From a virus (lineage: Duplodnaviria > Heunggongvirae > Uroviricota > Caudoviricetes), in IMG/VR virus record IMGVR_UViG_2606217106_000001, positions 1 to 5,982 of that record: a DNA stretch of 5,982 nucleotides. The stretch is one strand, 5' to 3'. Below are positions 1 through 5,982 of this stretch, one piece after another (position 1 is the stretch's first letter; every line of letters starts with the position of its first letter). A program made the translations under genes and the position numbers. The notes beneath the pieces are model-generated. The model was not told the origin of the DNA, made no database searches, and saw only the letters and a list, made by a program, of their open reading frames with translations.

Positions 1-631
1 GAGATTGGGTTGGGAGAGTAGTCATGGTGACAGCCCCTATGTTGAATTCAATGAACTCACCACCAAGGCTTTCCACGACCATATAGGTGGTGAGACGTAC
101 AGGGGTGGAAATACCGGTCAACATAGAACCCGGCCCAACCGAAGTTGGCCCTGCACGCCCCACCATAATTTGGGCATAACGATGCTCATGACACGAAAAA
201 ACCGCATGAGCGCGGTTGTGCTCTATATTGAATTTCGGGTTTCCACGCCCGGCACCCGCTTTATAAGGTGCCTGAGCAGTGTAACGTCCCGGAATTGCAG
301 AATCAATATGCTGGTGGTCCTTCACACTCAACAAAATCACGCCTGAATTTCCACAAAGGACTAAAGCACTCATGCGGGTAGTCTTTGCGAAGATAGATAA
401 CGCGCTGTGTTTCTGGCTCCCAACGAATAACATGAACATAAAGTCCTCTTCCGTCACGAAACCAGCGGTTAAGTTCCTGCACAACTCGCCCCCCACAGTC
501 AGGTAAAGTTCTCTGTGGTTACTTACAGCCAGGTGATTTGGTAATCTGCATTCATGCCGTAACAACAGGTGTTCAGCGACGCTGACCACCAGCTGTTGCG
601 ACAAACGGTTATTTGCCGTTAAACTATTCAT
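1..631 (-). CDS. Hypothetical protein, N-terminal ~210 codons; gene continues beyond the window start. Position (after cro and the 183-aa gene) suggests a replication/early-right module, but function is unassigned
   Basis: Hand translation of the minus strand (plus-strand triplets 629-631, 626-628 ... 2-4) is stop-free to position 1. ATG at 631-629 overlaps the TGA of the upstream gene (ATGA at 628-631), with an in-frame stop just upstream at 635-637 and a GGAG about 10 nt upstream. It is missing from the ORF track because no stop lies in the window; the listed + ORF 5..346 is its same-register antisense shadow. No family recognised. Confidence 0.7.
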   Translation of the reverse strand, partial: MNSLTANNRLSQQLVVSVAEHLLLRHECRLPNHLAVSNHRELYLTVGGELCRNLTAGFVTEEDFMFMLFVGSQKHSALSIFAKTTRMSALVLCGNSGVILLSVKDHQHIDSAIPGRYTAQAPYKAGAGRGNPKFNIEHNRAHAVFSCHEHRYAQIMVGRAGPTSVGPGSMLTGISTPVRLTTYMVVESLGGEFIEFNIGAVTMTTLPTQS

Positions 632-1179
632 GCGTTAGTTTCTCCACAGACACAAAACGCCACGACGCCCGGAGCTGCACACTCGCGGGCGTCACTCTTT
701 TCTGGAGCGCAAAAGATTTTGTAGACCAGTGCTGCATGCTCCTGGAGCTTCGAAATTGACAGATACAACTCATCATTAATTGCTGTCTGCTCGTGTGGCT
801 CCACTACCCCATCTTCGATTGCCGAACGAATCTGCTTTGAGTAACTCCCGATCTGTTCGATGACTTCCAGCAGACGCTGGTTAATATCGGCGTTGTCCAC
901 ATCCTCGACGTCAGGAAGAGACACAAAGACGCCATTTGCAGACTGCGCCACAGCGTCAGCAATGAAGTGAGTTCCACCAGCACGTTGTAAAATCATTGCC
1001 CATCCCAGCGGGAAAATCTGATCGCCATCTGCACGAAGGCGGTTGAATAATGCGTTCTCTGTTACATCCAGCCACTCAGCAGCTTCAGCGTAACCCCCCG
1101 GCAACGCCGCGATAGTTTTTCTGACAGCTTTCACGTACCACTCAGGCTGTTTTTCCACTTTCCAGTGATGATTACCCAC
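628..1179 (-). CDS. 183-aa early protein in the cII position, immediately downstream of cro; possibly a CII-like/YdaT-like regulator, function not established
   Basis: GTG start at 1179-1177 preceded by AGGAGG with a 6-nt spacer (reverse complement of 1180-1195). The start overlaps the end of the cro-like gene by 8 nt and the stop overlaps the next start, so the three minus-strand genes are translationally coupled. The functional label is from position only. Confidence 0.7.
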   Translation of the reverse strand: MGNHHWKVEKQPEWYVKAVRKTIAALPGGYAEAAEWLDVTENALFNRLRADGDQIFPLGWAMILQRAGGTHFIADAVAQSANGVFVSLPDVEDVDNADINQRLLEVIEQIGSYSKQIRSAIEDGVVEPHEQTAINDELYLSISKLQEHAALVYKIFCAPEKSDARECAAPGVVAFCVCGETNA

Positions 1180-1432
1180 GGCTTACCTCCTGTTCCTGTG
1201 GTTTAAACCCATTCTGGTTTTGGCTAGATTGAAAACGTGCCGGATAAAGAATCTGCATTTCGCTGATTTCACCCTTAAAAAAATTGGCCAGACGTTCTGC
1301 AAGATCGATAGATGGAATTTGTTCCAGTCTTTCAATACGACTCAGCGTCGCTGGATTGACCTGAACGCCCGCAGCAACATGCTGCAAAGTAAATCCGTGC
1401 GCCTTACGCACATTCCGTAATGGTGATTGCAT
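1172..1432 (-). CDS. Cro-like HTH (XRE-family) transcriptional regulator, 86 aa
   Basis: ATG at 1432-1430 with GGAGG 4 nt upstream (reverse complement of 1433-1441). Protein has a classic XRE helix-turn-helix (FTLQHVAAGVQVNPATLSRIERLEQ). It is divergent from the cI-like gene across a 97-bp operator region. Confidence 0.85.
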   Translation of the reverse strand: MQSPLRNVRKAHGFTLQHVAAGVQVNPATLSRIERLEQIPSIDLAERLANFFKGEISEMQILYPARFQSSQNQNGFKPQEQEVSRG

Positions 1433-1529
1433 ATAACCTCCACATATTGCGTGATGAGCATATTATTTCACGCAAATATTTTGCGCAAGTTGATTTGCTT
1501 AACGCGCAATAAAGAAATGTAATAAACGC
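1433..1529. promoter_or_regulatory. OR-like immunity intergenic region with three dyad-symmetric operator candidates spaced 24 bp centre to centre, plus candidate divergent promoters pR (towards cro) and pRM (towards cI)
   Basis: Dyads at 1447-1461 (TTGC-N7-GCAT), 1471-1485 (CGCAA-N5-TTGCG) and 1495-1509 (TTGC-N7-GCAA). Candidate pR on the minus strand: -35 TTGCGC (reverse complement of 1483-1488), 17-nt spacer, -10 TAATAT (reverse complement of 1460-1465). Candidate pRM on the plus strand: -10 TAATAA at 1520-1525, which puts the transcript start at or near the cI ATG, and there is no SD before 1530. Confidence 0.6.
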
Positions 1530-2222
1530 ATGAACATAGGAAACCGAGTCAGACAACTTCGCCAGGCGAAGAACATGAAAATCGCCGATCTCGCTGAAGC
1601 AATAGGAGTGGATGCGGCGAATATCTCACGCCTGGAAACAGGTAAGCAGAAACAATTCACTGAACAAGCCCTGAGTAATATTGCCAGGAGCTTAGGTGTT
1701 GATATTGCTGATCTCTTTACCTCAGACGTCAAAAGTAATACTGTATGTAAAAACAGTATTAGTGAGGATGTTGCGCAGGTGAAGGATGTATTCCGTATTG
1801 AAATGCTGGATGTCAGTGCCAGTGCGGGAAATGGCCTTATCCAGGGCGGTGATGTCATTGATGTGATTCATGCCATTGAATACAGAACTGATAATGCTGT
1901 ATCGATGTTTGGCGGACGGCCAGCCAATCACATTAAAGTTATCAACGTTCGTGGGGACAGTATGTGTCCAACCATTGAGCCAGGAGATCTCATCTTCGTT
2001 GATATCAGTATCAATCAGTTTGATGGGGATGGTATATATGTATTTGGTTTTGATGATAAAATTTACGTCAAACGACTGCAAATGATACCTGATAAACTGC
2101 TGGTAATTTCTGATAATCAGATTTACCGCGAATGGGGAATTACCAGCGAAAACGAACATCGGTTTATGGTCTTTGGAAAGGTCTTAATCAGTCAGTCACA
2201 AACCCTTAAGCGACACAATTAA
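1530..2222 (+). CDS. cI-like prophage repressor, 230 aa: N-terminal XRE HTH plus C-terminal S24 (LexA-like) autopeptidase domain
   Basis: HTH at roughly residues 17-40 (KIADLAEAIGVDAANISRLETGKQ). Candidate Ala99-Gly100 cleavage site in the linker (SASAG-NG). GDSM with Ser144 and a KRL lysine (Lys181); the Ser-to-Lys spacing of 37 residues equals that of LexA. ATG at 1530 has no SD. Confidence 0.93.
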   Translation: MNIGNRVRQLRQAKNMKIADLAEAIGVDAANISRLETGKQKQFTEQALSNIARSLGVDIADLFTSDVKSNTVCKNSISEDVAQVKDVFRIEMLDVSASAGNGLIQGGDVIDVIHAIEYRTDNAVSMFGGRPANHIKVINVRGDSMCPTIEPGDLIFVDISINQFDGDGIYVFGFDDKIYVKRLQMIPDKLLVISDNQIYREWGITSENEHRFMVFGKVLISQSQTLKRHN

Positions 2223-2242
2223 CCCCTACCTCAACATCAATT

Positions 2243-2267
2243 AGCCACCAGAAGGTGGCTTTTCATT
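2243..2267 (+). terminator. Rho-independent terminator candidate downstream of the cI-like gene
   Basis: AGCCACC (2243-2249), 4-nt loop AGAA, GGTGGCT (2254-2260), followed by TTTTCATT; 21 bp after the cI stop. Confidence 0.6.
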
Positions 2268-2276
2268 ACCCACCAA

Positions 2277-2330
2277 ATTGCATATCTCGCAATAAAAACA
2301 CTTGCATAATGCGCAACTTCATTTTATCTT
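2277..2330 (+). promoter_or_regulatory. OL/pL-like region: two operator dyads matching the OR consensus, overlapping a candidate rightward promoter
   Basis: TTGC-N7-GCAA dyads at 2278-2292 and 2302-2316, centres 24 bp apart, with the shared core TTGCnTAnnnCGCAA. Candidate promoter: -35 TTGCAT at 2302-2307, 17-nt spacer, weak -10 TATCTT at 2325-2330. The promoter assignment is tentative. Confidence 0.45.
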
Positions 2331-2760
2331 TCTTTCCAGACATACAAACAAGGTACTAACAAAATTTGGTTGTAACACGGCGTATGGCACATGCGTCGTT
2401 AGCGGTCTGGTGACGTTAAAGGGGACAATCCACTCCTTGCTCGGGCAAACAAACCAGGTAGCCGGAATGTGCAAGTCAATGATGATGCTGATAAGACGCC
2501 TAACCAGCGTGGCGATTCGGTTTGACGCCTGGGAAGAGACCAGGGTGCAACGATGAGGGCATTTATGGAACCGCGACAAAGTGTGGTGCCGTAACTGGCT
2601 AAGTGCTCTCAGCGTTGTGGTGAATGCGCAGGCTGATGCGCGAAAGACATTGCAGCTATTGCGGAAAAGAGCTGTTCGGCGGGGCAATTAAACGCCCGTG
2701 AGAGTCTGAAATAACCGCAAGCCGGAGATCAGCACCGGTCACCACAACAGCCACTGCTTT

Positions 2761-2807
2761 AGCGGTACCAGTTTGTACACTTGCTTCCGGCTGGTACCGC
2801 TCTTTTT
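2761..2807 (+). terminator. Strong hairpin followed by a U-tract; candidate intrinsic terminator or attenuator upstream of the accessory operon
   Basis: Perfect 11-bp inverted repeat AGCGGTACCAG (2761-2771) and CTGGTACCGCT (2791-2801) around a 19-nt loop, then CTTTTTA at 2802-2808. The minus strand has no U-tract. Confidence 0.4.
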
Positions 2808-2896
2808 ACAAAACAGAGAAGAGCATCACCGGCCGACGGGCTCATAACCCAATCCATCCTGGCGGCTGCCACCGCAGGTGTTCTTCTCTGTTTTGT
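2808..2896. repeat. Perfect 15-bp inverted repeat enclosing 59 bp of GC-rich sequence, just upstream of the yfdP-like ribosome-binding site
   Basis: ACAAAACAGAGAAGA at 2808-2822 is the exact reverse complement of TCTTCTCTGTTTTGT at 2882-2896. The enclosed segment has further local dyads (for example CCTGGCGG...CCGCAGG). Confidence 0.6.
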
Positions 2897-2944
2897 GGAG
2901 AAACCAACCGACCTTGCAGGGTCGATATGATGAGGAGCAGCAAA

Positions 2945-3307
2945 ATGGCTAGCGAACGCAGTACTGATGTGCAGGCATTTATCGGGGAGCTGGACGGCGG
3001 CGTATTTGAAACCAAAATCGGCGCTGTTCTCAGTGAAGTCGCTTCCGGTGTGATGAATACGAAAACCAAAGGTAAGGTCTCGCTCAACCTGGAAATCGAA
3101 CCATTTGATGAGAACCGTGTGAAAATCAAACACAAACTCTCATATGTTCGCCCGACTAACCGCGGGAAAATTTCCGAAGAAGACACCACCGAAACGCCGA
3201 TGTATGTCAATCGCGGTGGTCGCCTGACTATTCTGCAGGAAGACCAGGGACAATTACTGACTCTTGCCGGTGAACCTGACGGAAAACTCCGCGCAGCAGG
3301 TCGTTAA
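2945..3307 (+). CDS. yfdP: YfdP-like prophage protein of unknown function, 120 aa from this start
   Basis: ATG at 2945 preceded by GAGGAG (2932-2937) with a 7-nt spacer. The ORF track begins at ATG 2927 (126 aa), which remains an alternative. Symbol assigned by synteny with yfdQ/yfdR and recalled length; not verified. Confidence 0.7.
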   Translation: MASERSTDVQAFIGELDGGVFETKIGAVLSEVASGVMNTKTKGKVSLNLEIEPFDENRVKIKHKLSYVRPTNRGKISEEDTTETPMYVNRGGRLTILQEDQGQLLTLAGEPDGKLRAAGR

Positions 3308-3372
3308 TATCGTTTTTAATTAACTGATTATTTATCTCATCACTGAATATCTTTATATAGTGAGGACTTATT

Positions 3373-4197
3373 ATGTCTCAGAACTTAGACGCAACCGCAA
3401 TTAATCAAATCCATGCCCTTATTTCTGCTCAGGGTGTTAATGAAATTATCAGTAAGATTGGTGCCGATGCTGTGGCATTGCCTGAGAATTTCCGCATTCA
3501 TGATCTGGAAAAATTTAATTTAAATCGCTTCCGTTTCCGTGGTGCGCTTTCCACTGCCAGCATCGATGACTTTACCCGTTATTCTAAAGATCTTGCAGAT
3601 GAAGGCACCCGCTGCTTTATCGATGCTGATAATATGCGTGCCGTCAGTGTGCTTAACCTGGGTACTATTGATGAACCAGGTCACGCAGATAACACCGCCA
3701 CACTCAAACTGAAAAAGACAGCACCGTTCTCTGCTCTGTTGTCTGTTAACGGCGAGCGTAACTCCCAGAAGTCACTGGCAGAATGGATTGAAGACTGGGC
3801 CGACTACCTTGTGGGCTTTGATGCTAATGGTGACGCTATTCAGGCAACAAAAGCGGCTGCGGCAGTCCGTAAAATCACGATTGAAGCAAACCAGACCGCT
3901 GATTTTGAAGATAATGACTTCAGCGGCAAACGCTCCCTGATGGAATCTGTCGAAGCGAAGACCAAAGACATTATGCCAGTGACATTTGAATTTAAATGCG
4001 TTCCGTTTGAAGGCCTGAAAGAACGTCCGTTTAAATTACGCCTCAGCATTATCACTGGCGATCGTCCTGTACTGGTTCTGCGCATTATTCAGCTGGAGGC
4101 GGTGCAGGAAGAAATGGCTAACGAATTTCGTGATCTGCTTGTTGAGAAATTTAAGGACAGCAAAGTAGAAACCTTTATTGGTACTTTCACCGCCTGA
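3373..4197 (+). CDS. yfdQ: YfdQ-like prophage protein (DUF2303 family as I recall it), 274 aa, function unknown
   Basis: ATG at 3373 with GTGAGGA (3360-3366) at good spacing; a long uninterrupted ORF of protein-like composition. Length and position match CPS-53 YfdQ from memory. Confidence 0.88.
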
Positions 4198-4209
4198 TTT
4201 CATTACTGC

Positions 4210-4231
4210 AAATGCCCCTGCGGGGGCATTT
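4210..4231 (+). other. GC-rich hairpin in the yfdQ-yfdR spacer; weak terminator, attenuator or RNA-stability element
   Basis: AAATGCCCC (4210-4218), loop TGCG, GGGGCATTT (4223-4231): a 9-bp stem starting 13 nt after the yfdQ stop. The 3' T-run is short and mostly inside the stem. Confidence 0.35.
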
Positions 4232-4324
4232 ATGGAAACATAATTTACTCAATAATCGCCGGATGGTGATGGCTTCCTTTTACCAGAATTCAGCGCGGTG
4301 CAGCGCATATACGTGGAGAACAAA

Positions 4325-4861
4325 ATGTCATTTATTAAAACTTTTTCCGGGAAGCATTTTTATTATGACAGGATAAATAAAGACGACATCGTGATTAACG
4401 ATATCGCGGTTTCCCTTTCAAATATCTGTCGCTTTGCAGGACATCTTTCACACTTCTACAGCGTCGCCCAACATGCGGTGCTTTGCAGCCAGCTGGTACC
4501 GCAGGAATTTGCTTTTGAAGCGTTAATGCATGATGCAACAGAAGCGTATTGCCAGGATATTCCCGCTCCACTGAAACGCCTTCTTCCTGACTATAAACGG
4601 ATGGAAGAAAAAATAGACGCCGTAATCCGTGAGAAATACGGGTTACCCCCGGTTATGAGCACGCCCGTGAAATATGCCGATCTCATCATGCTGGCAACCG
4701 AACGCCGCGATCTCGGGCTTGATGATAGCTCTTTCTGGCCTGTACTGGAAGGTATCCCGGCAACAGAGATGTTCAAAGTGATTCCACTGTCGCCAGGCCA
4801 TGCCTACGGGATGTTTATGGAACGTTTTAACGAGTTATCGGAGTTACGCAAATGCGCATGA
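4325..4861 (+). CDS. yfdR: YfdR-like HD-domain phosphohydrolase (YfbR-type 5'-deoxynucleotidase family), 178 aa
   Basis: ATG at 4325 with GGAGAA (4314-4319) upstream; the ORF-track start at 4298 is a GTG 9 codons further up with no SD. HD-domain residues are visible: H40, H43, H50 and the H69-D70 pair (FAGHLSH ... LMHDATEAY). Confidence 0.88.
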   Translation: MSFIKTFSGKHFYYDRINKDDIVINDIAVSLSNICRFAGHLSHFYSVAQHAVLCSQLVPQEFAFEALMHDATEAYCQDIPAPLKRLLPDYKRMEEKIDAVIREKYGLPPVMSTPVKYADLIMLATERRDLGLDDSSFWPVLEGIPATEMFKVIPLSPGHAYGMFMERFNELSELRKCA

Positions 4862-5202
4862 ATGTTTTCGAAATGGAAGGGTTTCTTCGCGGGAAATGTG
4901 TACCACGAGATCTGAAAGTGAATGAAACAAATGCTGAGTATCTGGTGCGTAAATTCGATGAAGTACGTGCTGAGGCTCGCAACGAGGGTATTAACTATAC
5001 CGCAAGCCGTCTTGCTGCGGCTTTCAATCACGGATTTATCAATAAGTCTTTACGTGAAGTTTTCGACGTTACACGCATGATTCTGTCAGCGAAAGAAGAG
5101 TTGGCTAATGAACCACACCCGATTGATGGCCTGTCCGGTGAATATGCGGAGAAATCCCTAGAAGAATGGGCGGAACAGATTCGCAAAGGAGGCAACCAGT
5201 GA
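4852..5202 (+). CDS. YfdS-like small prophage protein, 116 aa; C-terminus ends in the RKGGNQ junction motif
   Basis: ATG at 4852 with GGAG (4840-4843) 8 nt upstream; it overlaps the yfdR stop (4859-4861) by 10 nt. An in-frame ATG at 4858 gives an ATGA overlap instead. The stop overlaps the next gene's GTG start. Confidence 0.75.
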   Translation: MRMNVFEMEGFLRGKCVPRDLKVNETNAEYLVRKFDEVRAEARNEGINYTASRLAAAFNHGFINKSLREVFDVTRMILSAKEELANEPHPIDGLSGEYAEKSLEEWAEQIRKGGNQ

Positions 5203-5204
5203 GC
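5180..5204 (+). repeat. Copy 1 of a 25-bp perfect direct repeat spanning a gene junction (codons for RKGGNQ, SD, stop and GTG start)
   Basis: TTCGCAAAGGAGGCAACCAGTGAGC is identical at 5180-5204 and 5857-5881. About 40 bp of downstream flank is similar but not identical (roughly 70% by eye). Confidence 0.9.
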
Positions 5205-5879
5205 AAGATTGACTATCAAGAACTGCGCGAGGCGGCGGAACAGGCAACGCAAGATGAATGGGTAGCATATATTTTGCCGGGTCATAACGGCATTTATCCT
5301 GCGCGCACGTCTGAGGGTAGGCATTGCGGATACTTTATTGACTGGCCTGGCGTCTGTCAGGGGCGGGAGAGCATCAGCATCAGAACCTACGCAGTGAATT
5401 GCAATGACGCATGGCTAAACACCGAAGGTGATGACATCTCCGGCTCATACGTTAAGTACAAAGACCATCAGGAAGTGGTTGCCGCTCTTGAGGCCAAGTG
5501 CGCGGCGCTGGCTGCTGAGAATGCGGGAATAAAGTCTGCAATTCCAAAATCACGGGATATTGAGGATGACAATGACAATATGGATGACGTATCTCTCGCG
5601 GAAGACTTCGGGTTCAATCATGCAATAGAACGGATGAGGAGACAGATACCTGAAACGCCAACCACTGATGCTTTCCTGGCTGAAGTCCGGGCGCAGGGGG
5701 TGGATGCTGCTATAGAAGCTGCAAAAAATCTGGTGGCCCAAGAATATGAGTGTAAGGATTTCAAAGCGGCGCAGAGTGATTGCTGTATGTACCCTGGTTC
5801 AGACCTGGTAGGGAAGGTTGAAATGACTGAGTGGTTAGTTGACTTTGCTGCCCAGCTTCGCAAAGGAGGCAACCAGTGA
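5199..5879 (+). CDS. Acidic hypothetical protein, 226 aa, tentatively Ead/Ea22-like (typical lambdoid early-left accessory gene)
   Basis: GTG at 5199 preceded by AAGGAGG (5186-5192) with a 6-nt spacer, overlapping the upstream stop (GTGA). The ORF-track start at ATG 5166 has no SD and would overlap the upstream gene by 37 nt. N-terminus SKIDYQELREAAEQ; C-terminus LRKGGNQ. Confidence 0.75.
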   Translation: MSKIDYQELREAAEQATQDEWVAYILPGHNGIYPARTSEGRHCGYFIDWPGVCQGRESISIRTYAVNCNDAWLNTEGDDISGSYVKYKDHQEVVAALEAKCAALAAENAGIKSAIPKSRDIEDDNDNMDDVSLAEDFGFNHAIERMRRQIPETPTTDAFLAEVRAQGVDAAIEAAKNLVAQEYECKDFKAAQSDCCMYPGSDLVGKVEMTEWLVDFAAQLRKGGNQ

Positions 5880-5881
5880 GC
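5857..5881 (+). repeat. Copy 2 of the 25-bp perfect direct repeat at the next gene junction
   Basis: Identical to 5180-5204, 677 bp downstream, in the same relation to stop and start codons. Confidence 0.9.
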
Positions 5882-5982
5882 GAAATTAATTACCAGGCAC
5901 TGCGTGAGGTGGCGGAACGTGCAATTCCAGCAATGGAACGCCTGTTAATGTTGCCAGTTGATGATGATTTGTTAAGTGAACA
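5876..5982 (+). CDS. Paralogue of the preceding gene, first 35 codons only; runs off the window end
   Basis: GTG at 5876 behind the same AAGGAGG and GTGA stop-start overlap. The N-terminus VSEINYQALREVAER parallels VSKIDYQELREAAEQ of the upstream gene. Open to the window end, so not in the ORF track. Confidence 0.55.
   Translation, partial: MSEINYQALREVAERAIPAMERLLMLPVDDDLLSE

Follow-up and report, generated by a model that had tools for sequence, protein, structure and literature searches.

We analyzed a window of 5,982 nucleotides (nt; positions 1 to 5,982 of the IMG/VR virus record IMGVR_UViG_2606217106_000001), which represents the immunity region of a lambdoid prophage, and focused on a non-coding stretch of 680 bp (2268-2944) located between a cI-like repressor gene and a YfdP-like gene and being 99% identical to phage mEp460. 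This stretch encodes a conserved, strand-specific and folded RNA 3' of a repressor-controlled promoter, consisting of two modules (A and B), an intrinsic terminator (T) and a long hairpin (C), and it very probably represents the non-coding head, specifying RNA, with which the early-left (PL) transcription unit of an mEp460/SfV/ST64B-type lambdoid prophage begins. The repressor gene, encoding a helix-turn-helix (HTH)/S24 protein, lies on the plus strand (1530-2222); the minus strand carries a Cro-like HTH gene (1172-1432) as well as a CII/CP76-like gene (628-1179). Just outside the stretch, a plus-strand hairpin recognized by the terminator scan (2243-2260, AGCCACC-AGAA-GGUGGCU followed by UUUCAUU) ends the cI transcript; its counterpart in SfII is annotated as a rho-independent terminator. 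At the right end, the start of the YfdP-like gene as annotated in mEp460 (2932-2947, plus strand), with the Shine-Dalgarno sequence GAGGAG at 2932-2937 and the ATG at 2945, closes the non-coding stretch. The coordinates of this gene yield a product of 120 amino acids (aa), which we take to be the length of K-12 YfdP, and it is followed by DUF2303 (YfdQ-like), YfdR-like and Ead/Ea22 genes, the match of the YfdR-like gene to YfbR-like 5'-deoxynucleotidases being weak and sub-threshold.

The stretch opens with two sites of the pattern TTGC-N7-GCAA, which were identified by pattern search and represent left operators (OL): the half-site pair TTGCATATCTCGCAA at 2278-2292 and a second one, TTGCATAATGCGCAA, at 2302-2316, overlapping the -35 element of a candidate PL promoter. 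Including a third site at 1495-1509, the right operator, the window holds three such sites against 0.23 expected, and the motif is likewise found 3' of the cI gene of ST64B. The candidate promoter was read from the sequence on the plus strand (2302-2330) as -35 TTGCAT (2302-2307), a 17-nt spacer and -10 TATCTT (2325-2330), from which transcription would start near 2337; a consensus promoter scan did not pick up this promoter at 2302-2330. In a different immunity type, TATCTA is found at equal distance from module A, and clear promoters are located directly 5' of the modules in mEp390, SPN1S and locus L127, the latter displaying TTGACA-N18-TACATT immediately before the first strand of module B and the same terminator as T after it. 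Both elements that an earlier note on this DNA had proposed for 2277-2330, OL-like operators and a candidate promoter, were hence recovered as two operator sites and a -35/-10 pair.

Comparison with phage genomes by BLAST revealed the stretch to be a mosaic, with parts of it matching different, unrelated phages (P1, epsilon15-like, T1-like, Ackermannviridae). Positions 2364-2620 match P1 directly 3' of tRNA-Ile as well as epsilon15/phiV10-like podophages directly 5' of tRNA-Arg, positions 2601-2749 match a P1 isolate 3' of tRNA-Thr, and a core of 40 nt matches Klebsiella, Erwinia, T1-like and Ackermannviridae phages, again close to tRNA genes. On the host side, 2,726 of 5,426 complete E. coli genomes match at least part of the stretch.

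Module A (2378-2619, plus strand) is a multi-helix structured RNA of ~245 nt. It comprises a 5' hairpin (CGGCG/CGUCG, 2378-2398) with the loop UAUGGCACAUG, a hairpin of ACGC/GCGU with the 7-nt loop CUAACCA (2496-2510), the hairpin CCUGG-GAAGAGA-CCAGG (2528-2544) and a long closing helix, in which UGCAACGAUGAGGGCA (2546-2561) pairs with UGCUCUCAGCGUUGUG (2604-2619), thereby enclosing a variable domain. In addition, GGCACAU (2386-2392) may form a pseudoknot with AUGUGC (2467-2472), a candidate interaction with both partners being invariant. Two anchor sequences of 19-22 nt, CCAGGTAGCCGGAATGTGCAAG and CGGGTAGCCGGAATGTGCAAG, were detected in >240 viral contigs, and the phage range of the module covers lambdoid, P1-like and epsilon15-like phages. 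On an alignment of 39 diverse copies (A5), RNAalifold predicts eight helices with 98.2% of the cells paired, compared with 29-47% in slid controls; double-sided changes occur in 13 of 42 pairs, and none of 500 shuffles reached the values of module A. The best-supported helices are the hairpin with the conserved 7-nt loop YUCACCA (four of four pairs covarying), CCUSG-GAAGAGA-CSAGG and the closing helix of 13-17 bp. Within the helices, 207 G.U pairs stand against 11 A.C pairs, showing that it is the plus strand which folds. No Rfam family matches module A at E<=10; it is thus a second, larger folded RNA besides module B with no catalogued relative. In P1, the module begins directly after trnI, and in phiV10-/SPN1S-like phages it lies directly before tRNA-Arg, the tRNA starting exactly after the GUUGUG that terminates the module. 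In SPN1S (L326) and loci L288 and L385, the variable 3' domain of the module carries one to two T-arm-like hairpins (GGUUCAAUUCC, GUUCGAUUC) that are not called by tRNA finders.

Module B (2614-2748, plus strand) folds into a cloverleaf of four helices, of which the first 6 nt, GUUGUG (2614-2619), simultaneously represent the 3' strand of the module A closing helix and the start of helix P1. P1 is formed by GUUGUGGUG (2614-2622) and CACCACAAC (2740-2748) and is followed by the junction AAU (2623-2625), P2 (GCGCA-GGCUGA-UGCGC, 2626-2641), a variable P3 domain (2642-2720) and P4 (GCCGG-AGAUCAGCA-CCGGU, 2721-2739), which abuts the 3' strand of P1 without any spacer. The loops of P2 and P4 are complementary as GCUGA/UCAGC, a candidate loop-loop pairing that is invariant apart from a change of GC to GU. 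An exact 22-mer of the module, GTGAATGCGCAGGCTGATGCGC, is shared by 115 species-representative genomes, spanning gamma-, beta- and alpha-proteobacteria, and by at least 120 IMG/VR contigs; the 3' core CCGGAGATCAGCRCCGGCCAC is equally common. The 22-mer also appears in metagenome-assembled genomes labelled Coriobacteriia, Geobacteraceae, Phycisphaerales and Acidobacteriota (L454, L461, L470, L483), reflecting either binning contamination or a wider host range.

In total, 185 distinct copies of module B with a length of 60-270 nt were found, 114 of which, carrying unrelated P3 (middle) domains, were aligned (A3). Within this alignment, 95.2% of the cells are paired in comparison to 88.1% in shuffles and 24-52% with slid partners, 15 of 24 pairs are changed on both sides, and none of 500 shuffles reached any of these measures. 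P1 covaries freely, with one of its pairs being realized as GC in 71, AU in 20 and UA in 20 copies and unpaired in none; seven of its nine pairs are formed in at least 92% of the copies, and the zero-nt junction between P4 and P1 holds. The covariance model R1 recognizes module B of the window with 94 bits (E = 4e-24) as its only copy there, and mEp460 likewise has one. The reference record of P1 contains two copies, another P1 isolate three, and phage Magnus a tandem pair. The copies of the P1 record AF234172 (L003) lie at 1307-1410 and 1568-1693 on the strand of the ban operon, the first one overlapping the opposite-strand open reading frames (ORFs) plp and upl, which may be spurious.

Unusual variable domains of module B were seen at loci L125, L095, L105, L087 and L123. 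One allele resembles a segment of E. coli 16S rRNA, presumably helix 11, with 85% identity across 40 nt (314-353 in the rrnH stretch used for the search), and two other domains contain tRNA-like D and T arms (L087 3978-4026 with 34 bits to the Rfam tRNA model; L123 with a tRNA-Pro called inside by ARAGORN). A general mimicry of rRNA by the variable domains was considered and discarded, as it holds for the 16S-like allele only, in addition to the two tRNA-like ones. Similarly, the K-12 small RNA (sRNA) RydB (L556 2723-2740) contains GCCGGAGAUAAGCGCCGG, which is nearly the P4 hairpin of module B; a relationship to rydB was rejected, since the similarity is confined to this single 18-nt hairpin and the rest of rydB has no match.

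Searching Rfam with the whole window at E<=1 yielded only C4 and isrK at the left end as relevant matches, and the modules searched separately at E<=10 gave nothing beyond this chance-level rydB hairpin. The Rfam search and the alignment of homologues for compensatory changes, which the earlier note had suggested, gave the following outcome: covariation was found in modules A and B as well as in hairpin C, and no Rfam family was found on the modules. A literature search by strings of the core sequences returned no relevant paper; the motifs may be present, without a name, in a catalogue of ~10,000 candidate structured RNAs of viruses.

The closest resemblance of module B was found to STnc100, an sRNA family from prophages of Salmonella and E. 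coli to which PasD is related. By score, module B of the window does not belong to this family, for which the Rfam gathering threshold is 47 bits and true members score 66-165 bits. By architecture, comparing the module B structure from the 114 aligned copies with the STnc100 consensus and its structure line, module B plus T and STnc100 follow the same plan: a closing helix of the type ..UGGUG/CACCA.., the AAU junction, a P2 of 5 bp with a loop of 6 nt, variable hairpins, a CCGG..CCGG hairpin directly next to the closing helix's 3' strand and, finally, an intrinsic terminator. The loop sequences differ (GUGCGG and AGGCA in STnc100, GGCUGA and AGAUCAGCA in module B), as do the sequences of P2 and P4, and STnc100 is catalogued as gammaproteobacterial, whereas the module B type extends to alpha-, beta- and gamma-proteobacteria and to lytic phages.

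Intermediates connect the two: R1 and the STnc100 model recognize elements of ST64B (L439 ~1295-1419) and SfII (L440 ~1808-1933) at identical coordinates, R1 scoring 33 and 32 bits and the STnc100 model 35 and 39.5 bits (both below the STnc100 threshold), and the SfII hairpin equivalent to T aligns to the terminator positions of the STnc100 model. R1 furthermore matches true STnc100 copies in L562 and L585. True STnc100 copies are found in tandem beside tRNA arrays, in the same orientation, within prophages, a habitat shared with module B. Considering shared plan, intermediates and shared habitat, we treat module B as a new and far more widespread branch of an STnc100-like superfamily; judged from architecture and intermediates, it belongs with the STnc100-type sRNAs.

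ST64B exhibits the same layout as the window, with cI, a gap of 815 nt, and YfdP- and YfdQ-like genes, and RNA sequencing of ST64B showed that the non-coding RNA (ncRNA) STnc1310 is expressed together with two genes 3' of cI upon induction by peroxide or nitric oxide (PMC7067206). PasD was recovered by Hfq RIL-seq (in which interacting RNAs are ligated and sequenced) in enteropathogenic E. coli, STnc100 was aligned with PasD as a related prophage sRNA, and the Pas sRNAs were described as late-region Hfq sRNAs (10.64898/2026.05.13.724894). Among the functions suggested beforehand for this stretch, an sRNA fits best, as module B plus T is built like STnc100 and STnc1310 maps to the homologous gap of ST64B. 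A third allele was observed in the slot between module A and T in many E. coli and Shiga toxin (Stx) 2c prophages (L240 8382-8510, L677 3745-3875). It reads GUUGUGGU-AAU-CCGCG AAAUGG CGCGG ... ACCACAAC, displaying the P1-AAU-P2 plan of module B; R1 does not see this allele, and the STnc100 model has no match on L240 at E<=0.001.

Extension of the analysis toward genomic context revealed a link to tRNA genes. Of 126 loci, 19 have a tRNA gene no more than 600 nt away from module B, in all 19 cases on the same strand, and at 10 loci a gap of 3-9 nt separates P1 from the start of the following tRNA. Modules and tRNA genes thus share array placement, orientation and 3-9-nt spacers; the modules differ in having no canonical D or T loop, anticodon arm or CCA, and the window itself contains no tRNA or transfer-messenger RNA according to ARAGORN and Rfam RF00005. 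The 5-bp P4 stacked on the reliably paired 7-bp P1 would resemble the acceptor and T stems of a tRNA. In this respect, module B would be comparable to tRNAs and tRNA-like substrates of RNase P such as the C4 RNA of P1/P7, having a cloverleaf topology and a closing helix predicted to stack on a 5-bp hairpin. C4 RNA of P1/P7 is processed by RNase P, and a C4 RNA gene also occurs in the window.

The commonest settings of module B are the same-strand position after a cI-like repressor (as in the window), the interval between NinG/RusA/Q and the lysis genes, and tRNA arrays, and both lysogenic and lytic phages carry the modules. Clustering of the ORFs within 3 kb in 171 contexts showed repressors, NinG/RusA/Q, lysis genes and terminase as neighbors and no protein family recurring beside module B; any partner of the RNA would therefore be host-encoded.

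Downstream of module B, the intrinsic terminator T (2761-2807, plus strand) was found by folding as AGCGGUACCAG..CUGGUACCGCU, forming a 13-bp stem (2761-2801) with a large loop succeeded by CUUUUU, consistent with the terminator-like hairpin predicted earlier. The 15-bp inverted repeat predicted alongside is present as well, its real extent being that of hairpin C (2803-2901, plus strand), which folds with a stem of ~25 bp (UUUUUACAAAACAGAGAAGAGCAUCACC / GGUGUUCUUCUCUGUUUUGUGGAG) and a conserved apical part, GGGCUCAUAACCCAAUCCA. A small plus-strand hairpin, CGACCUUGCAGGGUCG (2909-2926), is predicted just 5' of the ribosome-binding site; it is mostly conserved in close relatives and is listed by the terminator scan on the minus strand. 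The whole segment 2745-2950 folds with z = -6.6. In hairpin C, compensatory changes were recognized by eye in L355, L543, L447 and ST64B (CAGAG/CUCUG to CACAC/GUGUG; AGAGCA/UGUUCU to AGGGCA/UGCCCU). The suspicion that the stretch acts as RNA consequently gains strong support from compensatory changes in two modules and one long hairpin across many unrelated phages.

T and hairpin C are always found together, as the 5' arm of hairpin C begins with the U-tract of T. This composite (2761-2901 in the window; also L557, L585, L440, L264 and others) follows module B, the third allele or STnc100-type elements, and the genes downstream of it differ. With its A-tract/U-tract ends, hairpin C resembles a terminator with a very long stem; candidate roles are those of a second terminator, an RNase III-type site or a 5' untranslated region element. 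Within 157 contexts of module B, 53 show a terminator-like site on its 3' side, as compared with 20 on the opposite strand and 16 upstream.

The combination of these elements leads to the following account. Once the repressor leaves both OL operators, RNA polymerase would start near 2337, read the tandem modules A and B and meet T (2761-2807), where most transcripts would end. Host tRNA-processing enzymes may then separate A and B at the shared GUUGUG, like the tRNAs that replace or flank the modules in other phages, and the released RNAs would accumulate as stable molecules acting in trans. Module B plus T would represent a divergent branch of the STnc100/PasD kind, with a 7-9-bp closing helix stacked on a 5-bp hairpin and two loops that may pair. 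Its invariant core would act as scaffold or protein-binding part; specificity would come from the variable domain in combination with the U-tailed terminator, as has been suggested for the Hfq-bound STnc100 and PasD. Transcripts reading through T would carry hairpin C and supply the mRNA of the YfdP-like operon.

Promoter-proximal transcripts ending at the first terminator are known from lambdoid phages as lambda 6S RNA, originating from PR', and StxS of Stx2 phages. The RNA proposed here would likewise be an abundant short RNA from a major phage promoter terminated before the first gene, and many copies of module B and STnc100 sit, like those RNAs, between Q and the lysis genes. The differences are the promoter, PR' there and PL here, and the RNA of the window itself, which is much larger and has conserved tertiary-structure-like cores.

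Taken as a whole, i.e., PL giving rise to stable STnc100-type RNAs by termination and tRNA-type processing with action in trans, we give this account an even chance of being correct. The steps beyond the RNA itself (the stop at T, processing at GUUGUG, stable RNAs acting in trans, the division into core and variable part, and mRNA supply by read-through) are jointly placed slightly short of even. Several observations weigh against the account. The Rfam model of STnc100 (RF02076) has no match to the window at E<=1 and none to 2560-2830 at E<=10, so that homology rests on shared architecture and intermediates. A recognizable terminator follows only a third of the module B copies. Neither module carries canonical D- or T-loop sequences of tRNAs and tRNA finders reject both, leaving shape and spacing as the basis for processing by RNase P. 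The cores are near-invariant across alpha-, beta- and gamma-proteobacterial hosts, beyond the needs of a scaffold for a base-pairing sRNA, and neither the loop-loop pairing of module B nor the pseudoknot of module A ever varies, which places both out of reach of covariation. Finally, the account leaves the expression of the downstream operon past T and hairpin C without explanation.

An alternative is a cis-acting leader, in which A and/or B would, by analogy with the put RNAs of HK022 (putL, putR), which suppress termination in cis through the beta' zinc-binding domain of RNA polymerase, bind a conserved surface of this enzyme on the nascent transcript and allow it to pass T, hairpin C and Rho sites, thereby replacing N; in a weaker version, the dense structure would deny Rho loading on a 600-nt untranslated leader. 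The put element is a 70-nt RNA of two stems located after both PL and PR (PMC9378689). The placement is similar in that both lie just 3' of an early promoter of a lambdoid phage without N and with a terminator ahead, which applies to the window with no N-like ORF and with T at 2761-2807. Moreover, no promoter was seen by promoter scan between T and yfdP, the ncRNA and the downstream genes of ST64B are co-induced, further copies lie in leaders of late operons (Q to lysis genes) or before long operons such as P1 ban, and binding to a universally conserved enzyme would explain cores identical across proteobacterial classes.

On the other hand, a blastn comparison of the stretch with the complete HK022 genome, and with its immunity region, gave chance words only. 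The modules are multi-helix RNAs of 135-245 nt, each present once in the mEp460 genome with no partner on the PR side, unlike the PL/PR pair of put, and they occur in tRNA arrays of lytic phages as well. The analogy to put drawn in the earlier note thus fails as far as membership is concerned, on similarity, on fold and on copy number. Many copies are furthermore part of short units ending after a tRNA or terminator with nothing downstream to antiterminate (swi2, phiV10-like), copies in late regions already have the Q protein encoded upstream, and the related STnc100 and PasD accumulate as free sRNAs, PasD being recovered with Hfq. We consequently consider a cis-acting leader unlikely. As a separate observation, a weak match of R1 was found in HK022 (L322 33580-33693; 16.9 bits, E = 0.013) in the nin/late region, distant from the put sites.

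An improbable explanation to a similar degree is that the core of module B, and perhaps that of A, has an activity of its own as a tRNA-shaped decoy or substrate, self-cleaving ribozyme or small-molecule aptamer, with the variable domain being a peripheral stem. Such an RNA might be a decoy for a host tRNA enzyme or for a tRNA-targeting defence nuclease, or a ribozyme cutting polycistronic tRNA/ncRNA precursors. An invariant junction and loops, stems that covary and a peripheral stem without fixed length (60-270 nt overall) are reminiscent of riboswitch aptamers and ribozymes, the cloverleaf with its 7-bp closing helix set on a 5-bp hairpin without spacer would correspond to the acceptor and T stems of tRNAs, and placement in tRNA arrays with tRNA-like spacing, tRNA-like variable domains in some copies and the presence in lytic phages point in the same direction. 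Against this stand the absence of canonical tRNA loops and of a match to any Rfam ribozyme or riboswitch. In addition, a riboswitch would be expected with a conserved class of downstream genes, whereas none recurs in the 171 contexts, and the terminator does not overlap P1.

Far less probable still is that the stretch encodes one or more small proteins. ORFs of 30-122 aa are present, including one of 84 aa on the plus strand and one of 122 aa on the minus strand (2319-2687), and the GenBank depositors of mEp460 annotated two minus-strand ORFs here, one of them being the 122-aa ORF. None of the ORFs of the stretch has a Pfam match, and this homology search accordingly provided no conserved protein-coding gene, one of the findings that the earlier note had named as refuting it. 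Measured from an invariant 19-mer, the stop-free frame of the 122-aa ORF differs from homologue to homologue, stops interrupt every frame in most of them, and a stop-free frame arises in 19% of shuffles; an apparent coding signal from the longest open stretch was dismissed as an artefact of short sequences with few stops. A 36-aa arginine-rich ORF (2581-2691) crosses the hypervariable domain of module B, and an N-like ORF was found neither in the stretch (ORF list, Pfam) nor among the annotations of mEp460 and Stx2a_1447, in line with the absence of an arginine-rich N-like gene noted before.

Conservation overall tracks helices rather than codons, and the Prokaryotic Genome Annotation Pipeline (PGAP) leaves the stretch blank in nearly all of the E. 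coli genome matches listed, a sample of 40. The lack of any credible ORF in 2268-2944 is therefore borne out by the Pfam result, the frame that is not kept and the mostly blank PGAP annotation, and the small-protein option raised in the earlier note is abandoned since frames are not conserved and have no Pfam match. In the window, 2759-2761 is a TAG (TTTAGCGG), with TGG in most relatives; in the latter, a 182-aa ORF runs in frame through T and hairpin C into yfdP, which is sometimes annotated by gene callers and is probably an artefact. Decayed or spacer DNA left from a lost N or rex-type gene, for which only the lack of an ORF speaks, is the least credible option and falls with the 99% identity to mEp460, the conservation of the stretch at an identity of at least 95% among thousands of E. 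coli genomes, core 22-mers identical across bacterial classes and compensatory changes in module A, module B and hairpin C.

At the left end of the window, Rfam detected on the minus strand a C4 antisense RNA (83-170, 82 bits), isrK (195-271, 62 bits) and a c4 a1/b1 target motif (232-284). They fall within an open frame of 210 codons (1-633, minus strand), which in the mEp460 annotation constitutes the N-terminal half of a Rha antirepressor of 383 aa. The Rha-like part only begins further left, at an internal Met, so that the annotated extension probably represents an RNA-regulated leader similar to P1 immI.

In summary, two widespread structured RNA families with solid covariation were defined. 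The poorly understood STnc100/PasD sRNAs are thereby tied to a far larger group reaching into lytic phages and three proteobacterial classes, and the STnc100-type group gains a tRNA-like architecture together with a link to tRNA arrays. For genome annotation, about half of the complete E. coli genomes match part of a stretch that is left blank or filled with spurious ORFs. Two questions become testable, namely early-left expression in N-less lambdoid phages (SfV, ST64B, mEp460 and some Stx phages) and the purpose of non-tRNA RNAs within phage tRNA clusters. As a tentative and rather doubtful extension, module B, STnc100 and the third allele could form one large, uncatalogued superfamily of tRNA-shaped phage RNAs, with module A as a second new class and the cassettes being shuffled at GUUGUG. 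If this were true, the invariant core would be a ribozyme or aptamer itself or engage a universal machine of the host (the ribosome, RNase P or RNA polymerase), with the hypervariable domain as a swappable payload, and an RNA-based read-through of early terminators might operate in N-less lambdoid phages.

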